DNA of 30,826 bases from a virus (taxonomy: Duplodnaviria > Caudoviricetes). The notes below the pieces were generated by a model. The model was given only the letters and a program-made list of their open reading frames with translations. It did not search any database and had not been told where the DNA came from. A program made the translations under genes and the position numbers. Positions 2,900-16,723 of this stretch are shown in pieces; position 1 is the stretch's first letter; every line of letters begins with the position of its first letter. The stretch spans positions 1 to 30,826 of the IMG/VR virus record IMGVR_UViG_3300025723_000127; one strand, given 5' to 3'.

Positions 2900-5800
2900 A
2901 TGTCTACACAAATTAAATTTAGAAGAGATACAAGCACTAATTGGGCAACGGTTAATCCAATACTGGGGTCAGGTGAACCTGGATTAGAAACAGATACCGG
3001 CAAGGTTAAAATTGGTGATGGTGCAACAGCTTGGAGCTCTCTAAGTTATGTATTCAATGGATTTGTAGCATCTTATTCTAATATAAATGTTGCTCAATAT
3101 CTCCCAGCATATACTGGAAACTTGAAAGCAGGCAATGTAAATGCTTTAAATGCTGTTTATAGTCCTGCTTATTATTATTCAAATGGTATTGCATTTGTTG
3201 GTGGAGGCGGCGGAACTACTTATAGTGATTCTAATGTTGCTGCTTATCTTCCAACATATGCTGGGAATGTAAATGCTGCTAATTTTGTTAGTAGTACTGC
3301 TGTATATGCTCCTGCATATTATTTTGCAAATGGTGTTGCATTTACCACTGGTTCTACATATTCAAATGCAAATGTTGCTGCTTATCTTCCAACATTTAGC
3401 GGCTCGGTTGGTGGTACATTATCAACAGCAGCGCAAAATAATATTACTTCAGTTGGTACATTGGGTTCACTTTCAGTAACTGGTGCAGTAACTGGCAATA
3501 CATTTACTGGAGTTGCTGTATACGCCGGTACTATTGGTAATACGAGTTCAATATTAACTGGTACATTGTCAACCGCAGCGCAAACTAATATTACTTCAGT
3601 TGGTACATTGGGATCTTTAGGTGTTGTTGGTACTATAGCTGCAAACACGTTAAATGCAAGTACAATCGGTAACGCAGGTGCTTCACTACAGGGTTCTACG
3701 GTTAATGCTACTGGTGCTGTTCAAGGAAACACACACGTAGGCGTTGCTGTATATGCAGGAACCATTGGTAATACAGGTGCTAATTTAGTAGGAACCATTG
3801 ATACAAATGCTCAGCCATATATCAATAGTGTTGGCACATTAACTGGATTAACTAGTTCAGGTATTGTAACCGTTACCAACGGCACAAATACAATCAGTAG
3901 CTCAACTGGCGCTGTTGTAGTATCGGGCGGTGTTGGAATTGCTGGTAACTTATATGTTGCTGGTAATATAACAGCTGGAAATGTAAATTATGTTAATACA
4001 ACAACATTAAGTGCTACAGCACCAGTGCTTTATCTAACCACTGGTTCTGTTTATCCATACAATTATGAAATTGGATTCTATAGTAATATGTTTGGTAGTT
4101 CAAGCAATGTACTTGCTTATACTGGATTTGTTAGAAATCACGTTGATAATGTATGGCATTTGTTTAGTAATATTGGCGGCCCCATTGGAAGTGCATTTAA
4201 TCTAGCTAATGCTGCAATAATATATGATACTATTAAGACTGGCGGACATATTTTAGCTAATACAACTAGTTCAACTAGTTCAACTACAGGTGCATTGCAA
4301 GTAGCAGGCGGCGCTGGCATTGTTGGGAATCTTAATGTTGGGCAAGGAATTATTGCTGCAAACGGTGCAGTATCAACTGGTATATTTGTAGGTAATTATT
4401 CAGATGGTATTATTTTGGATTACCAAAATAATAACGGTCGTATTAGTGTTGGAACAGGAGATTCACTTAGTTTCTATACCGGTGGACCATCGGGACCTCA
4501 AACAGCAACTATAGCTGCCAATGGCGCTTTTATCAGCACAAGCATACAAAATACTCCAATTGGTAATGCAACTGCTTCAACTGGTGCATTCACTACATTA
4601 ACTGCAACAGGCGGAACTTTTACTACATTAGGGGCCACTGGTACTAGTACCTTAGGTGCAGTAACAGCATCGACTATAAGTTCTGGTACTATTGGTAATG
4701 CAGGTGCAAGTCTTCAAGGATCGAGTGCTGCATTAACTGGTGCAGTAACTGGCAATACATTTACTGGTATTGCTGTTTATGCAGGAACCATTGGTAATAC
4801 AGGTGCAACATTAACTGGTACATTATCAACTGCTACCCAAACTAGTATTACTTCAGTTGGTACATTAACTGGATTAAGCGTAAGTGGTAGTACTAACTTA
4901 CAAGGTACTACTAACGGAGCAACTATTAATGCCAGCACAATACAAGCAGGCACAATCGGAAATACAGGAGCAACACTTGTTGGCACGTTGGGAACTGCAA
5001 GTCAAACTAATATTACCAGTGTTGGACAACTTGGTTCTCTTGGCGTTAGTACTATTATAACTACTGGCTCATTGAATGCAGGCACGATTGGTAATGCAGG
5101 TGCTAATTTTATAGGTGCTAACTTAACTGTTTCGGGTAATATATTTGCAAACACTTATGGTGTATATGCAGGAAGTTATTATTGGGCAAATGGTACATCA
5201 TTTAGTGGTAGTGGTGGATCATCTTACAGCAATACTAATGTTGCTGGATATTTGCCAACATATAATGGTAATTTAAATGCTGGTAATTTAAACTTATACA
5301 GCAATACAACTATTGCAGCTACTCCTATTAACTCTAGTACATATGGCGAAATTCAAAGCAATCGTATGATGGGCAGATATAGTACTGCTACACAAGGATA
5401 CTTTGAACTTACTGGAACTGGAACAGTTGATAGCAATGATGCGTCAGTCGCTAGTCGTATTCCTACTCGCTTAGACACTGTTACTGGCAGTGAAATACTA
5501 CAGCCGGCATATGGCGCAGGATATGGCAACAAGAAAGTTGGTCTTGGATTCCACACTGGTACTTACAATGATATAACAACTGCTTCAGTAAGTGGTACAC
5601 CAAATTATTCTAATAATGTTAATGCTGTTGTTTTGGGATATATGAACAACGGCCCACGTTTATCAATAATGGATTACTCACTAGTAGATGATACTCCAAA
5701 CGTAATGGCATTTACAAGTAGTGTTTATAAATTCTATAGTGCTACAGGATCAACTATTGCAACTATGGATTCAACTACTAAGAACATTACTGCTACTGGC

Positions 5801-7444
5801 AACATATTTGCCAATTCAGGAACAATTCAAAGTAATATATTCACTGGTGTTGCGGTATATGCAGGTACCATTGGTAATGCAGGCACTGACTTTAATGGTG
5901 CAACTTCAGAATTAACCGGTGCAAGTCAAGCAGCTAGTTATACTACAATAAATGGCGGACAAATAACAGGATACTTAACAGGTGCAATTGGTGCCAATAC
6001 TGCTAACAGTGGCACATTTACCAGCGTAACTACTACCAGTGGCGGGCAACTAACTGGATATCATACTGGTGAGATTGGATCTAATATTGCTAATATTGGT
6101 ACGTTTACTACATTAACTGCAACTACAACGTCATCAACTAATTTAGTATCCACTGGTGCATTTTACTCAAATGGTACCGCAAATGTCAATTCAATGACTG
6201 CTAATATTATTACAGCGGGAACAATTGGTAATAGTGGTGCAGTAATTTATGGAACTTTAAATACTGCAAGTCAACCAAATATTACAGGCGTTGGTACATT
6301 AGGCGTATTAGCTGTAACTGGAACTATCAGTGCAGGTATTCATGCTGGTGCATTAAATGGCCCACATAATGGAACCGTTGGCGCATCAACTCCAAATACT
6401 GGTGCATTTACAACATTAACAACTACCGGAGATGTTACGGTTGCTGGTAGCTTATATGTCAATGGCAACAGCACAATAATTAATGCTAATAATGTTTCAA
6501 TCAATGATACTTTGATATATCTTGCAAATGCAAATCCGGCGAATAGCTATGATATTGGATTTGTTGGTCACTTTACTGCTGGTACCTATCAACATACCGG
6601 TTTAGTACGCCAAGCATCAACTAATACTTGGACATTCTTCAGTAACGTATCAACTGAACCTTCAGGCAACGTATTAACATTTGATGCTAACACAGCATAC
6701 GATGCTATTAAAGTTGGAAATGTAAGTACTGTAAATGGTATTTATTGGGCAAATGGTACTAATTTTGCAAGTACCATCTCTGGCACATATGGCAACACAC
6801 AAGTTGCTGCATACTTACCAACATATAACGGTGTTGTTCAAGGAAACACACATGTAGGTGTTGCTGTATATGCAGGCACAATTGGTAATACAGGTGCTAA
6901 TTTAGTAGGAACTATTGATACAAATGCTCAGCCATATATTACTAGTGTTGGTACGTTAACAGGATTAACTGTAAGTGGAGCAATAGTTCCAAATGCAAAT
7001 AACTCAGTTAACTTAGGCTCAACTAGTGCTTGGTGGAGTACAATATACGGTGTGGCTATTCAAGCAAAATATGCAGACTTAGCAGAGTGTTATGCATCTG
7101 ATTCAGAATATGCTCCCGGCACTGTACTTGACTTTGGTGGCACAAATGAAGTTACATTAAGCACAGCAGATGCAAGTCGTCGTGTTGCTGGTGTTGTAAC
7201 GACAAATCCTGCTTACTTAATGAATAGTCAAATTGAAGCTGAGTTTATTGCTGCTATTGCACTTCAAGGTCGTGTTCCAACATTAGTTCAAGGTCCTGTT
7301 ATGAAGGGTGATACAATGGTATCAGCTGGTAACGGTCGTGCTCGTGCAGAAGCCGATCCAAAAATTAGTACCGTAATTGGTAAAGCACTTGAAGATTTTA
7401 ATGGCGACATTGGTGTCATTGAAGTTGTAGTGGGACGTAACTAA
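2900..7444 (+). CDS. Long tail fibre: Mtd_N-like N-terminal domain, G/T/N-rich repeats, C-terminal intramolecular chaperone (peptidase G2-like)
   Basis: IKFRRDT..NW...NPILGSGEPGLETDTGKVKIGDG.TAW..L.Y; many AAQTNITSVGTL and AGTIGN repeats; C-terminal YADLAECY...VAGVVTTNPAYLMN...ALQGRVP...IGKALEDF. Confidence 0.85.
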   Translation: MSTQIKFRRDTSTNWATVNPILGSGEPGLETDTGKVKIGDGATAWSSLSYVFNGFVASYSNINVAQYLPAYTGNLKAGNVNALNAVYSPAYYYSNGIAFVGGGGGTTYSDSNVAAYLPTYAGNVNAANFVSSTAVYAPAYYFANGVAFTTGSTYSNANVAAYLPTFSGSVGGTLSTAAQNNITSVGTLGSLSVTGAVTGNTFTGVAVYAGTIGNTSSILTGTLSTAAQTNITSVGTLGSLGVVGTIAANTLNASTIGNAGASLQGSTVNATGAVQGNTHVGVAVYAGTIGNTGANLVGTIDTNAQPYINSVGTLTGLTSSGIVTVTNGTNTISSSTGAVVVSGGVGIAGNLYVAGNITAGNVNYVNTTTLSATAPVLYLTTGSVYPYNYEIGFYSNMFGSSSNVLAYTGFVRNHVDNVWHLFSNIGGPIGSAFNLANAAIIYDTIKTGGHILANTTSSTSSTTGALQVAGGAGIVGNLNVGQGIIAANGAVSTGIFVGNYSDGIILDYQNNNGRISVGTGDSLSFYTGGPSGPQTATIAANGAFISTSIQNTPIGNATASTGAFTTLTATGGTFTTLGATGTSTLGAVTASTISSGTIGNAGASLQGSSAALTGAVTGNTFTGIAVYAGTIGNTGATLTGTLSTATQTSITSVGTLTGLSVSGSTNLQGTTNGATINASTIQAGTIGNTGATLVGTLGTASQTNITSVGQLGSLGVSTIITTGSLNAGTIGNAGANFIGANLTVSGNIFANTYGVYAGSYYWANGTSFSGSGGSSYSNTNVAGYLPTYNGNLNAGNLNLYSNTTIAATPINSSTYGEIQSNRMMGRYSTATQGYFELTGTGTVDSNDASVASRIPTRLDTVTGSEILQPAYGAGYGNKKVGLGFHTGTYNDITTASVSGTPNYSNNVNAVVLGYMNNGPRLSIMDYSLVDDTPNVMAFTSSVYKFYSATGSTIATMDSTTKNITATGNIFANSGTIQSNIFTGVAVYAGTIGNAGTDFNGATSELTGASQAASYTTINGGQITGYLTGAIGANTANSGTFTSVTTTSGGQLTGYHTGEIGSNIANIGTFTTLTATTTSSTNLVSTGAFYSNGTANVNSMTANIITAGTIGNSGAVIYGTLNTASQPNITGVGTLGVLAVTGTISAGIHAGALNGPHNGTVGASTPNTGAFTTLTTTGDVTVAGSLYVNGNSTIINANNVSINDTLIYLANANPANSYDIGFVGHFTAGTYQHTGLVRQASTNTWTFFSNVSTEPSGNVLTFDANTAYDAIKVGNVSTVNGIYWANGTNFASTISGTYGNTQVAAYLPTYNGVVQGNTHVGVAVYAGTIGNTGANLVGTIDTNAQPYITSVGTLTGLTVSGAIVPNANNSVNLGSTSAWWSTIYGVAIQAKYADLAECYASDSEYAPGTVLDFGGTNEVTLSTADASRRVAGVVTTNPAYLMNSQIEAEFIAAIALQGRVPTLVQGPVMKGDTMVSAGNGRARAEADPKISTVIGKALEDFNGDIGVIEVVVGRN
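3717..6970 (+). repeat. Dispersed ~135-nt in-frame repeat (about 3717-3853 and 6835-6970)
   Basis: Both copies encode VQGNTHVGVAVYAGTIGNTGANLVGTIDTNAQPYI(N/T)SVGTLTGLT, with mostly synonymous differences. Confidence 0.85.
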
Positions 7445-7452
7445 TATTACAG

Positions 7453-7484
7453 CTCCTGCTTTGTTAATAAATACAAAGCAGGAG
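7453..7484 (+). promoter_or_regulatory. Late promoter ATAAATA in the loop of a perfect 12-bp hairpin containing the SD
   Basis: CTCCTGCTTTGT (7453-7464) / ACAAAGCAGGAG (7473-7484); ATAAATA 7467-7473; ATG 7491. Confidence 0.8.
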
Positions 7485-7490
7485 ATTTAG

Positions 7491-9428
7491 ATGTCACAGC
7501 AGTTTATTAATATTGGATCTACACCGAATGATAGTACAGGTGATCCGCTACGTACAGCATTTGATAAAATAAATCAAAATTTCAATGAAGTATATTCTAA
7601 CGTAGCTGGTAGTAATTTTAAATTCCAAGTTAATACAATGACAACTAAATTAGGAAATATTAATATTTCACCAATTGGTTCTGCTGTTATTGTAGGCACA
7701 AATAATCAACTTTATCTTCAAGGAACGGCAGCTAGTACTAGTACATCAACTGGTACACTAGTAGTTAACGGCGGGGTTGGCATTGCTGGAGACTTGCACA
7801 TTGGCGGATATTTTGTTGCGCCATATGCTTCTTTCTCTCAACTTCAAAATACACCAATTGGCACAATTACTCCTACATTGGGATCATTCACTACATTAGG
7901 CGCAACAGATCTTAGTGTTTCCAATAGTGTTTCAATAAACAATACTCTATCAGTAATCAATAATTTTTCGGCTGGCAGTATCTCCACTGGTGCTCTTACA
8001 GCAACTAGTGTTACTGCGGGTAGTGGGTCAGGAACTTTCCAAAATTTATACAGCATAGAGAGTATTTTCTCAAATGCATTTGTTAATGGTCTTACTGCAA
8101 TTAATCTTCTTACATCTAATGCTTACATAACAGGTGGTACTATAAGTGGTGTAAGTATTTCAATTAATGGCGTCGATAATACACCAATTGGTGCTACAAC
8201 TCCTAACACTGCTGTATTCACAAAAATGACAACTGCGAATGCACAGATTACAGGGGGTAATATATCCGGAGTAACTCTTAGTGTTACTGCATTAAACAGC
8301 ACCCCAATTGGCAATGCAATTCCCAGTACCGGTGTGTTTACAAATGTTACTACTTCAAATGGCGGTCAGCATATTGGATATCATACTGGTGCAATTGGAG
8401 CTAATATTGCCAACACCGGTGTGTTTACAAATGTCACTACTTCAAATGGTGGTCAGCATATTGGATATCATACTGGTGCAATTGGAGCTAATGTTGCTAA
8501 TAGTGGGGCATTTACTACAGTTACAACATCTGGAAACTTAACAACAGCAAATGTAGCAGTAAATGGTAATCTAAGCACTAACTATCTAATTGCAAACACT
8601 ATTACTACAACTGCTGGATTAGGCGGTAACTTAATCATTGATCCGGATGGCTCAGCAGATTTAGTTATTTCTCCATTCACCGAAGTTTACATACAAAGTA
8701 CTGCCAGTTCAAATTCTACATCAAACGGTTCACTTATCGTTAGTGGAGGCATTGGTGTTGCAGGCAATGTATATGTAGGTGGTCAGCTTGTTGGATATCA
8801 TACCGGTGCGATTGGAGCCAATATTGCCAACACCGGTGTATTTACAAATGTCACTACTTCAAATGGCGGTCAGCTTTTTGGATATCACACTGGTGCAATT
8901 GGAGCTAATGTTGCTAATAGTGGTGCATTTACTGAAGTTACTATATCAGGTAATTTAATTGCTAGTAATTTCACCATAATAGGCAACATTAGCGGTTCTG
9001 CTGCAACATCAGTTTCTGCAACAACTGCCGGTACTGCAACTTATGCAACTACTGCTGGTTTAGCAGGATCTGCTACAACTGTCGTTCAACCCTATCAAGG
9101 AAATATTACTGGTACTGGCACACTGGCTAATCTTTTTGTTAATTCTACTGCAACTGTTGGTAATTTAAGTACATCGGGAAACATAACTGCAACAGGAAAT
9201 ATTACCACTGGGCAAACTTTTTATGCAGGAACAATTAACGTAGGTAATGTCAGAGTAACAGGTGGAAATTTAAATATCTACGACAGTTATACTATTAATG
9301 ATAGTATAGGATCTCCAGGCGATGTTAAAGGTAAGATTGTATGGAGCAACAATTACATTTATGTATGTGGTGCTGACTATACTGGAACAGGTTCAATTTG
9401 GTTTAGGGCAAATCTCAACAGTTTCTAA
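7491..9428 (+). CDS. Tail fibre-like protein with a gp9/gp10-like N-terminal motif
   Basis: QQFINIGSTPNDSTGDPLRTAFDKINQNFNEVY; N-terminus paralogous to 2264..2896; NTPIG and GYHTGAIGAN repeats; C-terminal G.PGD.KG.I.W..NYIYVC...W.R module. Confidence 0.8.
   Translation: MSQQFINIGSTPNDSTGDPLRTAFDKINQNFNEVYSNVAGSNFKFQVNTMTTKLGNINISPIGSAVIVGTNNQLYLQGTAASTSTSTGTLVVNGGVGIAGDLHIGGYFVAPYASFSQLQNTPIGTITPTLGSFTTLGATDLSVSNSVSINNTLSVINNFSAGSISTGALTATSVTAGSGSGTFQNLYSIESIFSNAFVNGLTAINLLTSNAYITGGTISGVSISINGVDNTPIGATTPNTAVFTKMTTANAQITGGNISGVTLSVTALNSTPIGNAIPSTGVFTNVTTSNGGQHIGYHTGAIGANIANTGVFTNVTTSNGGQHIGYHTGAIGANVANSGAFTTVTTSGNLTTANVAVNGNLSTNYLIANTITTTAGLGGNLIIDPDGSADLVISPFTEVYIQSTASSNSTSNGSLIVSGGIGVAGNVYVGGQLVGYHTGAIGANIANTGVFTNVTTSNGGQLFGYHTGAIGANVANSGAFTEVTISGNLIASNFTIIGNISGSAATSVSATTAGTATYATTAGLAGSATTVVQPYQGNITGTGTLANLFVNSTATVGNLSTSGNITATGNITTGQTFYAGTINVGNVRVTGGNLNIYDSYTINDSIGSPGDVKGKIVWSNNYIYVCGADYTGTGSIWFRANLNSF
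8328..8933 (+). repeat. 87-nt (29-aa) tandem repeat, re-duplicated downstream
   Basis: Units start at 8328 and 8415 (TGVFTNVTTSNGGQHIGYHTGAIGAN(I/V)AN); a further ~155-nt copy lies at 8778-8933. Confidence 0.9.
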
Positions 9429-14435: not shown

Positions 14436-15063
14436 TTATGACTGCACATGGAATTCGGTTATTGCATTAGATGATTGGATTGCACCAAGTAATTATAAAT
14501 GTAAAATCTATTTCGATATCGAGACAGACGATGGAGAACAACAAAATATTGCATTTGAACGTTGTAAGATAATGATTGAAACAATCTTTGAACATAGTTT
14601 AATAATCAATATTAATAATCCTTTATTGCAGGTTTTAGCTAAAAAATCTAAACAGAGAATAATCACTTTACCTTCGGAACCAATTGATGTCATAATGGCT
14701 GCTGTATTGTATAGCAAGCTAAATGCAGTATCAGAAGGTCGTCTATCTATTAGAAAGATCAAAATATCCAGTAGTCAAGGCGATAATATTTGGGTTCATT
14801 TTGACGAAGATTTTGCAGAAGATTTTGGTAGTTTAGAATGTGAACTTTATAAAACAATCGATGAAAAGCCATGGTGGATTCGCCCCGATCCCAGTATTGG
14901 CGATTGGTTTGAATTTGGCAAGAAAGATATTAAGTTTCATTATCAAAAGTCCTCATGGGACAAGAGTTTGTTATGGGAAAAAGCTAACGATAATAAAGGC
15001 GGAAAGTCGAAGTCAAATTGGAATCCAAAGGTTATAGATGGCGGCAAAGAAACTAAACATTGA
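14422..15063 (+). CDS. Hypothetical protein, weak resemblance to the QueD/T-fold layout
   Basis: 213-aa ORF overlapping both neighbours; NYKCKIYF...FERCK..IE.IFEHSLI spacing recalls QueD without its His motifs. Confidence 0.65.
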   Translation: MTDLSYDCTWNSVIALDDWIAPSNYKCKIYFDIETDDGEQQNIAFERCKIMIETIFEHSLIININNPLLQVLAKKSKQRIITLPSEPIDVIMAAVLYSKLNAVSEGRLSIRKIKISSSQGDNIWVHFDEDFAEDFGSLECELYKTIDEKPWWIRPDPSIGDWFEFGKKDIKFHYQKSSWDKSLLWEKANDNKGGKSKSNWNPKVIDGGKETKH

Positions 15064-15565
15064 CAAATATAGTCGTAGTATAGTTACAGAATCTGACATA
15101 TGTCAGCAGCTATACTACGACTCAAAATTTGACTATAGTAAAGTTGCCTTACGAGATCCTAGTAAGTACAACTCTGCTATAGATCGGTTGTTCTTATATG
15201 AACCAAAGTTAGAAACACTTGAAGAAATTGCTGTTGATCCTGTAGCATGGCATGAATCAAATCAAAATATTTGGTTCATGCCTGAAGAATATAAGAACAT
15301 GGACATTGCGAAATGGCTCTTGGACCAGGCTAAAAATGATACTGAACTCCAGCGCACTGGCGCAGAATTACTAATGTTTGCAGAGCGTGACTTGTTAGAC
15401 CTGTTACGTTATCTTAAATATTTTGTTGATACACTTAGAACCAACAATATTGTTTGGGGAGTTGGCAGAGGTAGTAGTGTAGCTAGTTTCGTTCTTTATT
15501 TAATTGGTGTTCATAAGATCAACTCAATCTCCTACGGCTTAGATATCAATGAATTCATAAGGTAA
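15038..15565 (+). CDS. dnaE: Stand-alone fragment of DNA polymerase III alpha (C-family)
   Basis: R...EL.M......L.YL.YFVDTLRTNNIVWGVGRGSSVASFVLYLIGVHKINSISYGLDINEFIR matches DnaE GPGRGSAAGSLVAY.LGIT.IDP..Y.L.FERF. Confidence 0.85.
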   Translation: MAAKKLNIDKYSRSIVTESDICQQLYYDSKFDYSKVALRDPSKYNSAIDRLFLYEPKLETLEEIAVDPVAWHESNQNIWFMPEEYKNMDIAKWLLDQAKNDTELQRTGAELLMFAERDLLDLLRYLKYFVDTLRTNNIVWGVGRGSSVASFVLYLIGVHKINSISYGLDINEFIR

Positions 15566-15585
15566 TTGGTATTCATAAGATAAAT
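15563..15585 (+). pseudogene. Left half of a duplicated dnaE 3' end (IGIHKIN), containing the late promoter ATAAATA
   Basis: TAATTGGTATTCATAAGATAAA (15563-15584) versus TAATTGGTGTTCATAAGATCAA (15501-15522); ATAAATA at 15580-15586. Confidence 0.75.
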
Positions 15586-15605
15586 AAGTTCGTAGGAGTA
15601 GTTTT

Positions 15606-16253
15606 ATGTTTTACGTTTATCAATATTTGAGAGAAGATGGCACACCTTACTATGTAGGGAAAGGGAAAGGCAAAAGAGCATTTGTTAAAGGAAAACATGA
15701 AAGAATCAAAAAACCCAGTAATCCTAATAATATAATAATAGTTAAAGATAATTTAACTGAAACTGAAGCTTTTAAGTTAGAAACACAATTAATAGAACAA
15801 TATGGTCGCAAAGATTTAGGCACAGGTATATTACAAAACTTATCTAACGGCGGAGATGGACCATCTGGAGCAGTTTATGGTCCGATACCTGAAGAAAGAA
15901 GAAAGAAAATTTCAGAAAAGCTTACTGGCAGAAAAGTTAGTGACGAGACTAAACAAAAGTTAAGTTTATCACATAAAGGTTTAAAACAATCAGATGAGAC
16001 AAAGAAAAAGAGATCTGAAAAACTAAAGGGAATTGAAAAGTCAATTGAATATAAAGAGCATCTATCAAAAAGTAGGATGGGTGAAAACAACCCAATGTTT
16101 GGTAAAATTTCTCCAAATAAAGGAAAGAAACTTTCTGATGAAATCAAAAACAAGATTAAAGAAGCACGATCAAAACAAACTTTTAGTGAGGAAACCAGAT
16201 TGAAAATGGCAGAATCGCAAAGATTAAGGCATGCTAACAAGCGTAACCTATAA
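15606..16253 (+). mobile_element. Free-standing GIY-YIG homing endonuclease with NUMOD3 repeats
   Basis: FYVYQYLREDGTPYYVGKG...R...EAFKLETQLI..YGRKDLGTGILQNLSNGGDG; repeats SDETKQKLS, SDETKKKRS, GENNPMFGK, SEETRLKMA; AGGAG SD. Confidence 0.88.
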
Positions 16254-16281
16254 TCTAGATATTGAAGAATTTATACGTTAA
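16240..16281 (+). pseudogene. Right half of the duplicated dnaE 3' end (SVTYNLDIEEFIR*)
   Basis: AGC GTA ACC TAT AAT CTA GAT ATT GAA GAA TTT ATA CGT TAA parallels SISYGLDINEFIR* at the end of dnaE. Confidence 0.8.
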
Positions 16282-16303
16282 ATATAATAAAAGGAATAAA
16301 CAA

Positions 16304-16723
16304 ATGGTTGGAGTTTATACTACAAGCCGCGGCAATAAAGTTGACATGAATAGTATAAAAATTAAAAATGAGATGGTTGTTGCAGTGGGTAACGCTGGGA
16401 CAAATGCCAGAGGTGATTTAGTTAAAGGCGGACAGATTATTAAAACTAGAGAACAGATAATGCGGGAACAATATAGTATTAGAGGAAATAATATTCCTAA
16501 GGATAGTACGGGATACGAATCATTAGCAGATATTAAAGCTGATGAACCAACTCCTGTAAATTTCGATTCACCTTATGATTCATTAAAAAATAATAACAAT
16601 AACGCTTTAAAAACAGTAGAACAACCTGTATTAGATAATGTACCTCGCGGCGGGTTAGCAAATGCAGTTAGTAAAAGTCAAGAAATTGCAGAAGTATTAG
16701 AACAGCAGAGAAAGAGAATTTAA
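16304..16723 (+). CDS. Phage hypothetical protein
   Basis: TTAAATA (16278-16284) and AAGGA precede ATG 16304 (MVGVYTTSRGNKVDM...AVGNAGTNARGD); preferred over TTG 16262. Confidence 0.75.
   Translation: MVGVYTTSRGNKVDMNSIKIKNEMVVAVGNAGTNARGDLVKGGQIIKTREQIMREQYSIRGNNIPKDSTGYESLADIKADEPTPVNFDSPYDSLKNNNNNALKTVEQPVLDNVPRGGLANAVSKSQEIAEVLEQQRKRI

Follow-up and report, generated by a model that had tools for sequence, protein, structure and literature searches.

A 716-bp cassette carrying a replacement gene end and a GIY-YIG endonuclease gene at the 3′ end of a phage dnaE-like gene

The dnaE-like gene, the nuclease gene and the duplicated pieces

The window (the whole stretch of DNA that was analysed, 30,826 nt) contains a gene for a DnaE-like truncated DNA polymerase III alpha, an endonuclease gene and the gene starting at 16304, and the features of this locus are listed in Table 1. 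The 175-aa host protein matched PF07733 (E 2.8e-8, Pfam) and phrog_11127 (E 5e-43), and its C-terminal end reads IGVHKINSISYGLDINEFIR before the stop. It spans only positions 15–94 of the 260-position Pfam model, and its counterparts in cultured jumbo phages are equally short (172 aa in CBB; PMC5259590). No solved structure was found for the dnaE fragment by the profile search. Homologues were found in the jumbo phages PA5oct, Atu_ph07, GAP32 and CBB, and PA5oct has the same gene order as the window, without the nuclease, so that the window probably belongs to an uncultured member of that group. Freshwater metagenomes were the best-matching runs.

Table 1. Features at the 3′ end of the dnaE-like gene (positions in the window)
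Feature	Position	Strand	Basis
Host gene, DnaE-like, 175-aa truncated DNA polymerase III alpha	15038..15565	+	Pfam PF07733, phrog_11127
Native left target half (…IGVHKIN), probable binding half	15501..15523	+	relatives, insert-free joints
Cassette, 716 bp, probably mobile; ends uncertain by a few bases	15524..16239	+	joints in insert-free contigs
Foreign replacement tail, 13 codons and stop (SISYGLDINEFIR, stop)	15524..15565	+	identity to closest relatives
Predicted RNA hairpin; replacement tail pairs with nuclease Shine-Dalgarno	15529..15598	+	fold
Non-coding copy of the target's left half, candidate operator	15563..15586	+	cassette-borne, 5 distinct cassettes
ATAAATA, predicted nuclease late promoter	15580..15586	+	TAAATA statistics, CBB motif
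GIY-YIG/NUMOD3 endonuclease, 215 aa, intact reading frame	15606..16253	+	Pfam, PHROG, motifs, fold
Stranded native right half (SVTYNLDIEEFIR and stop in translation)	16240..16281	+	37–39/42 nt to L001–L003
TTAAATA, predicted to be the late promoter for the 16304 gene	16278..16284	+	overlaps old stop codon
Next gene, phrog_14844	16304..16723	+	phrog match; adjoins dnaE in insert-free relatives

The nuclease was assigned from motifs, profiles and a structural model. Pfam detected NUMOD3 repeats, which are separate C-terminal DNA-binding modules (E 1e-13), and gave no match to its GIY-YIG model; phrog_314, a homing endonuclease family, was matched with E 7e-20. The N-terminus carries YVY…YVG, and Y3, Y5, Y16, G18, R24, E59 and N78 were invariant in all 24 aligned sequences; Arg, Glu and Asn are the catalytic residues of the GIY-YIG family (PMC2988022). 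According to Foldseek with the predicted model (mean pLDDT 81, pTM 0.37), the 11 best PDB rows listed were GIY-YIG domains of UvrC or PD-T4-3, the top row having a probability of 0.97 and an rmsd of 2.7 over 73 columns with a weak E of 0.1, and an HMM match to 9u75 was also obtained (E 2e-4). By sequence and predicted fold, the product is a GIY-YIG/NUMOD3 homing endonuclease with a presumed cleavage activity. No close nuclease was found in cultured phages (best 44%). The host ORF ends before the nuclease, with only 40 nt from its stop to the nuclease start, and the search for a group I intron or intein gave no Rfam match at the gathering score or at E≤1; an intron, an intein or a structured RNA was ruled out by this result and by the ORF layout.

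All of the duplicated pieces named by an earlier note on this DNA were found where it had placed them. The left duplicate (15565–15585) translates to IGIHKIN, and its DNA match begins at 15563 and shares 20/23 nt with 15501–15523, the next-best match on both strands of the window being 16/23. The right duplicate, which gives the nuclease ORF its last codons and stop, shares 10 of 14 residues with the upstream tail (next best in six frames, 7/14) and only 25/42 nt at the DNA level (next best, 24/42); it stands out by peptide and position, not as DNA. In assembled contigs of other runs (not raw reads), the left junction was crossed with 0 differences by X3 (15109–15795) and X4 (15263–15721), the right junction by X11 (15515–16284) and X23 (15570–16297), and both junctions by X18 (15231–16286). 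X3 and X4 may share a 2017 campaign with the source.

Limits of the cassette and origin of its flanks

Joints lacking the insert were found in four of the six runs (X11, X13, X18 and X23), and none among the listed matches of X3 and X4; X11, X18 and X23 contain both occupied and empty forms, in related phages. In X11, X13 and X23, exactly 716 bases are missing at the joint, which lies at 15523 or 15527, and the X18 joint skips 720 bases and has 4 other letters. The letters before 16240 in the insert-free contigs are GTTCACAAGATCAAC; insert-free alleles of this lineage have ATC AAC or ATC AAT there, not ATA AAT.

The best 80 of 200 relatives were kept for the comparison of tails, and all 80 have a single tail without a nuclease at the site. 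Among them, the three closest insert-free relatives (L001–L003; 73–74% identity) end in SITYNLDIEEFIR and a stop immediately ahead of the counterpart of the 16304 gene, their tails being IGVHKINSITYNLDIEEFIR or the LGI variant. Compared with the stranded right half they are identical at 39, 38 and 37 of 42 nt, and compared with the replacement tail at 26, 28 and 28 of 42; for the left half, the values were 20, 18 and 20 of 23 for the upstream sequence and 17, 17 and 17 of 23 for the IGIHKIN copy. A weaker trend was observed over the 54 distinct tails (left half: 26 nearer the upstream sequence, 13 nearer the copy and 15 ties; right half: 31 nearer the stranded sequence, 17 nearer the upstream tail and 6 ties). 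From the joints at 15523/16240 and the matches of the relatives, it follows that the cassette comprises 15524–16239, that its flanks are native and that the IGIHKIN copy is cassette-borne. The host ORF is thus a hybrid of native codons up to 15523 and the tail of the cassette, which sits 13 codons before the end of dnaE and keeps the gene whole with its own respelled copy. The stranded half likely serves as the right homology arm.

These results bear out the main proposal of the earlier note, an intron-less endonuclease insertion in the 3′ end of dnaE. The stranded right half is native, and the tail now in use is foreign and respelled, as it had proposed. Its expectation that endonuclease-free relatives would carry a single tail resembling the joined sequence, directly before the 16304 gene, was borne out by the alignment for the right half. 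Its view of IGIHKIN as the old left half of this phage has to be given up, as the relatives fit the upstream half better, and the excision of 15586–16239 that it had drawn is contradicted by the insert-free alleles, which join 15523 to 16240. The spelling of the target should likewise be corrected to that of the insert-free alleles (ATC AAC, not ATA AAT).

As also claimed earlier, TTAAATA of the next gene lies over the old stop codon, with TAAATA at 16279. The same overlap was found in L001–L003, and TAAATA is at or just past the stop in 32 of the 54 distinct insert-free tails; a match to the 16304 gene directly follows the dnaE stop in 79 of the 80 kept relatives. Other nuclease-like ORFs were seen near this gene cluster in relatives (5797–6075 on the minus strand in L077 and L078; 4716–5516 in L081).

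Related cassettes, the non-coding copy and the target

The same anatomy was found in four other phages. Four further distinct cassettes occupy the same site (L081, L171, L172 and L174/L175), each with a complete tail, a stop, a copy ending in ATAAATA and a related nuclease (45–65% identity, tblastn). L081 was found by protein search, and the other three were found by a pattern scan that demanded the copy, by which degenerate copies would be missed. Nuclease-similarity searches of viral contigs returned 79, 65, 14 and 80 loci, none of them beside dnaE except on the L081 contig. The first pattern scan returned one locus, L081 itself; the second returned six loci, giving three new cassettes after the window itself (L173), the shared sequence of L174 and L175 and a tandem repeat (L176) were discounted; the third returned two loci, neither with dnaE; and the fourth returned 31 loci, namely one known cassette, five native alleles and 25 unrelated sequences. 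DNA context is available for the five distinct cassettes, and the 42 other rows of the nuclease tree (P0004–P0045) are without context. Stranding is not general, because the old right half is absent from L081, L171 and L174; the L172 contig ends too early to tell. Some of the proteins without context have C-termini resembling the dnaE tail read in frame (INEFLK in P0005, EEFLK in P0022), and many of P0004–P0020 have LN and a few further residues at the C-terminus, which looks like reading through TTAAATA and the next ribosome-binding site; these ends hint that the same site is occupied there.

In the dnaE tree (58 rows, from which L171 was excluded as too short), the four cassette-bearing proteins are scattered among the 54 insert-free ones. 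Four changes are needed, at least three of them forced by well-supported branches, and none of 200 bootstrap trees gave one origin of the cassette. This speaks for repeated spread, although a single ancient gain followed by many losses could also produce such scatter. A near-identical cassette was found in a diverged host. The X18 contig, from another study, differs from the window at 41 positions in 245 nt of dnaE (83% identical) and at only 20 positions in 811 nt of the cassette region (97.5% identical; Fisher p 5e-14), and the X11 contig differs at 8 positions in 770. As the essential-looking dnaE has diverged more than the nuclease and spacer, this is the pattern that would be expected of recent homing.

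Within the stranded half, X18 carries G16243A, T16260C and T16263C, all as in insert-free L003, and the members of the nuclease cluster end in KHNL or KRNL, matching the spelling of the stranded half; the stranded half therefore seems to be taken from each recipient host. One-sided homing with a microhomology joint, as in the T4 td intron (PMC2988022), could have made the right junction of this lineage. One X23 contig (record 25; window 15570–16297) has a 95% identical cassette and keeps the stranded half, and its 649 upstream bases do not align to the window at 85%; it probably has another replacement tail and another host. Taken together, the cassette is real and is probably an end-replacing homing element that is still mobile.

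The predicted late promoter of the nuclease gene overlaps the non-coding copy. In the window, 10 of 18 plus-strand TAAATA motifs lie 8–60 nt ahead of a gene start (p 1e-8), one TAAATA being at 15581, and for phage CBB, ATAAATA has been predicted to serve as late promoter (PMC5259590); the sigma-70 promoter and terminator scan gave no excess over shuffles. Between pairs of the five cassettes, the copy is alike at 15–19 of 19 nt (mean 16.4/19), compared with a mean of 11.6/19 for their coding left halves. At the six positions free of the scan pattern, 46 of 60 comparisons were identical, as against 148 of 373 at the four-fold sites of the nuclease genes. The copy is therefore far more conserved than the silent sites of the nuclease and is under selection, and this conserved target mimic is the most distinctive feature of the cassette. 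The 29 nt holding the copy are identical in L172, and in L174 the coding left half has been respelled while the copy keeps the spelling of the insert-free sisters. Over its own late promoter, I-TevI binds a mimic of its homing site (PMC2988022, section 10). By analogy, the target-like sequence overlapping the nuclease promoter here (20/23 nt to the left half of the target) may be an I-TevI-type operator, a reading that is modestly favoured.

The leading alternative accepts a tail-replacing homing element and takes the IGIHKIN copy to be a relic that was kept for its promoter and has no operator role; it is a real contender, if a somewhat doubtful one. The copy holds the promoter hexamer and, in four cassettes, a part of a predicted hairpin, both of which could account for some of the conservation, and the pattern-based ascertainment inflates it. 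Nevertheless, the conservation extends 13 nt upstream of TAAATA, where other promoters of the window share nothing, and the hairpin partners vary between cassettes while the copy is constant. The window and L081, which were not found by pattern, are still alike at 15/19 nt, and native spelling in L174 was kept by the copy and not by the coding half. In L081 (2972–3000), the nuclease start lies only 5 nt past ATAAATA and has no Shine-Dalgarno sequence, suggesting a leaderless late mRNA, and a 59-aa ORF follows the nuclease (3744–3923).

The Shine-Dalgarno sequence of the nuclease gene in the window (AGGAG, 15594–15598) falls in a predicted hairpin of −24.9 kcal/mol (z −4.6; none of 200 shuffles reached this stability), the 5′ arm of which is the first part of the replacement tail, its odd codons pairing with the Shine-Dalgarno sequence. 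The predicted energy for opening the initiation region was 14.9–18.6 kcal/mol on the read-through transcript, as against 2.1–3.7 on the late transcript, the start of which we placed, as an assumption by analogy with T4, 9–12 nt into the promoter region. The predicted difference in opening cost was 13.9 kcal/mol for the window, 11.4 and 10.1 for L171 and L172 with other arms, and 4.8 and 4.4 for L174 and L081; the 41 controls had a mean of 3.0 and a maximum of 12.8 kcal/mol. L174 has a weak hairpin (z −1.4) and L081 none (z 0.6), and two of the nine other window genes preceded by TAAATA have an equal effect. With the substitution seen in X18 at 15532, the pair would survive as G-U (one case). 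On these models, the hairpin may block translation of the nuclease from read-through mRNA. Hairpins that hide ribosome-binding sites on read-through mRNA have been described for some T4 late genes. In two late genes of the host, starting at 2264 and 7491, predicted hairpins around TAAATA (regions 2175–2285 and 7400–7510; z −2.3 and −3.7) would likewise hide the ribosome-binding sites on read-through mRNA, with differences of 12.8 and 11.3 kcal/mol. The idea that every replacement tail serves as an anti-Shine-Dalgarno arm was rejected as not general: the window (where 3 of 54 insert-free tails do at least as well) and L174 (2 of 54) are the only cases in which the gene's own tail pairs unusually well, and the tails of L171, L172 and L081 show no unusual pairing.

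The positions at which carriers differ from insert-free alleles cluster between +6 and +14 nt, to the right of the junction. Among five carriers that are not fully independent, Tyr at codon +2 was found in none, as against 42 of 57 insert-free alleles (p 0.002, uncorrected), and Asp at codon +4 in one, as against 46 of 57 (p 0.01, uncorrected); the empty allele of this lineage itself has Thr at +2 and Asn at +4. This cluster points to the right of the junction as the cleavage side, and the left half kept in the copy is likely the half that the enzyme binds. A natural insert-free target allele is available (L003:3461–3525).

It is improbable that the nuclease is a free-standing gene with its target at another locus, an old illegitimate insertion having left the duplication as a passive scar. 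Cutting away from their own gene is known for free-standing phage endonucleases (PMC2988022), but here five phages, all with respelled tails, carry the same nuclease clade at one and the same codon, the allele differences lie 6–14 nt from the junction, and in X18 the identity falls off sharply in the dnaE flank.

Even less credible is the order of events of the earlier note, by which the nuclease split a resident tail at ATA AAT/AGC and a separate, later duplication put the new tail upstream. The net length difference would equally be 716 bp, and TAAATA lies across the Ile-Asn-Ser codons in 5 of 54 insert-free tails, so that the cassette might have had such an origin in ancient times. The insert-free alleles of this lineage, however, read ATC AAC or ATC AAT and match the upstream left half, and the copy recurs in five cassettes and is the same letter for letter in L172, a phage with a dnaE of just 47% identity. 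The idea that the nuclease promoter was taken from Ile-Asn-Ser codons may hold for a distant ancestor.

Finally, the insertion is not an assembly artefact, and artefact or chance resemblance can be dismissed: the right half alone hardly exceeds its DNA background (25/42 against 24/42) and the support comes from contigs without raw reads, but three later studies (2020, 2022 and 2023) yielded cassette contigs with substitutions of their own, and the protein cluster has 7 members.

Proposed homing cycle and relation to known elements

The reading that is held with high confidence is that the 716-bp cassette, consisting of a respelled tail, a non-coding target copy and a GIY-YIG nuclease gene, spreads by homing without splicing. 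During co-infection, the nuclease would bind the left half of an insert-free allele (the …G-V-H-K-I-N codons) and would cut or nick at or just to the right of the Asn/Ser junction. Repair would then copy the cassette in, completing the gene with a tail that the enzyme does not cut, and in this lineage the right crossover would fall in or at the stranded old tail, so that each host would keep its own spelling. The non-coding copy would act as an operator on the late promoter, and the hairpin would keep read-through mRNA from being translated, so that the nuclease would be made only late in infection.

The parallel with fungal mitochondria that the earlier note had drawn holds. In the cited parts of PMC3630166, the hybrid mORFs of Allomyces macrogynus (atp6) and Glomus (atp6, atp9, cox2 and nad3) have the same anatomy: the insert consists of a foreign C-terminal piece and an endonuclease, which is a GIY-YIG enzyme in the atp9 case, and the native end lies downstream and is nearer to insert-free relatives than the inserted end. 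The cassette differs in its phage host gene, in its tail of only 13 codons and in a late promoter bearing a conserved copy of the left half of the target; those parts of PMC3630166 make no mention of such a copy for mORFs. WHO elements at the yeast FBA1 gene also home without splicing and replace the 3′ part of the host gene, with the original 3′ part downstream and tails that differ between elements (PMC7282813; bioRxiv 10.64898/2026.08.13.744650). Their enzymes are LAGLIDADG proteins with a zinc finger, and they replace half a gene, occur in clusters and have tested allele-specific cleavage (in the cited parts of the same sources), whereas here there is one element per locus and cleavage is predicted. 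Membership of the WHO family proper was ruled out, as the enzyme is GIY-YIG/NUMOD3 at a phage gene, not LAGLIDADG at FBA1.

Among phage elements, hairpins that hide ribosome-binding sites or operators are described in PMC2988022 (sections 10 and 12) for I-TevI, I-TevII, I-TevIII, segB and Aeh1 mobE. T-even endonucleases resemble the cassette in having a target-like sequence over a late promoter and a hairpin that hides the initiation region on long but not on late transcripts (PMC2988022). The operators in the cited sections belong to intron-encoded enzymes, whereas the cassette has no intron and its operator is predicted; unlike the hairpins described there, that of the cassette has one arm within a coding replacement tail. 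The seg and mob endonucleases of T4-like phages are likewise intron-less, lie beside or inside genes of DNA metabolism and spread with co-conversion of neighbouring sequence (PMC2988022). The seg genes lie between genes, and Aeh1 mobE and T4 mobA split the host protein in two, whereas here the host protein remains one chain and its lost end is replaced (compared with the cited parts of PMC2988022). No paper on end-replacing cassettes in phages was found among open-licence PMC papers and bioRxiv.

A wider reading, offered tentatively as one that may well not hold, is that a WHO-like family of splicing-free cassettes is spreading among PA5oct/GAP32-related phages, and that about 75 bases ahead of the nuclease do four jobs: they would finish the host protein, escape cleavage, provide a target mimic for autorepression and place a hairpin arm in the replacement codons. 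If this is true, the variety of tails would be the record of an arms race fought at one cluster of dnaE codons. The cassette itself would extend the third way of homing, by replacement of a gene end with no intron or intein, from fungi and yeasts to phages. The last codons of a dnaE marker gene can be foreign, which is a warning for its use. The anatomy names the target, the likely binding half and the likely cleavage side of an uncharacterised GIY-YIG nuclease, for which occupied and empty alleles are available from nature. Moreover, a conserved target mimic carried by an intron-less nuclease would show that autorepression of the I-TevI type needs no intron, which bears on how endonucleases gained target-like flanks.
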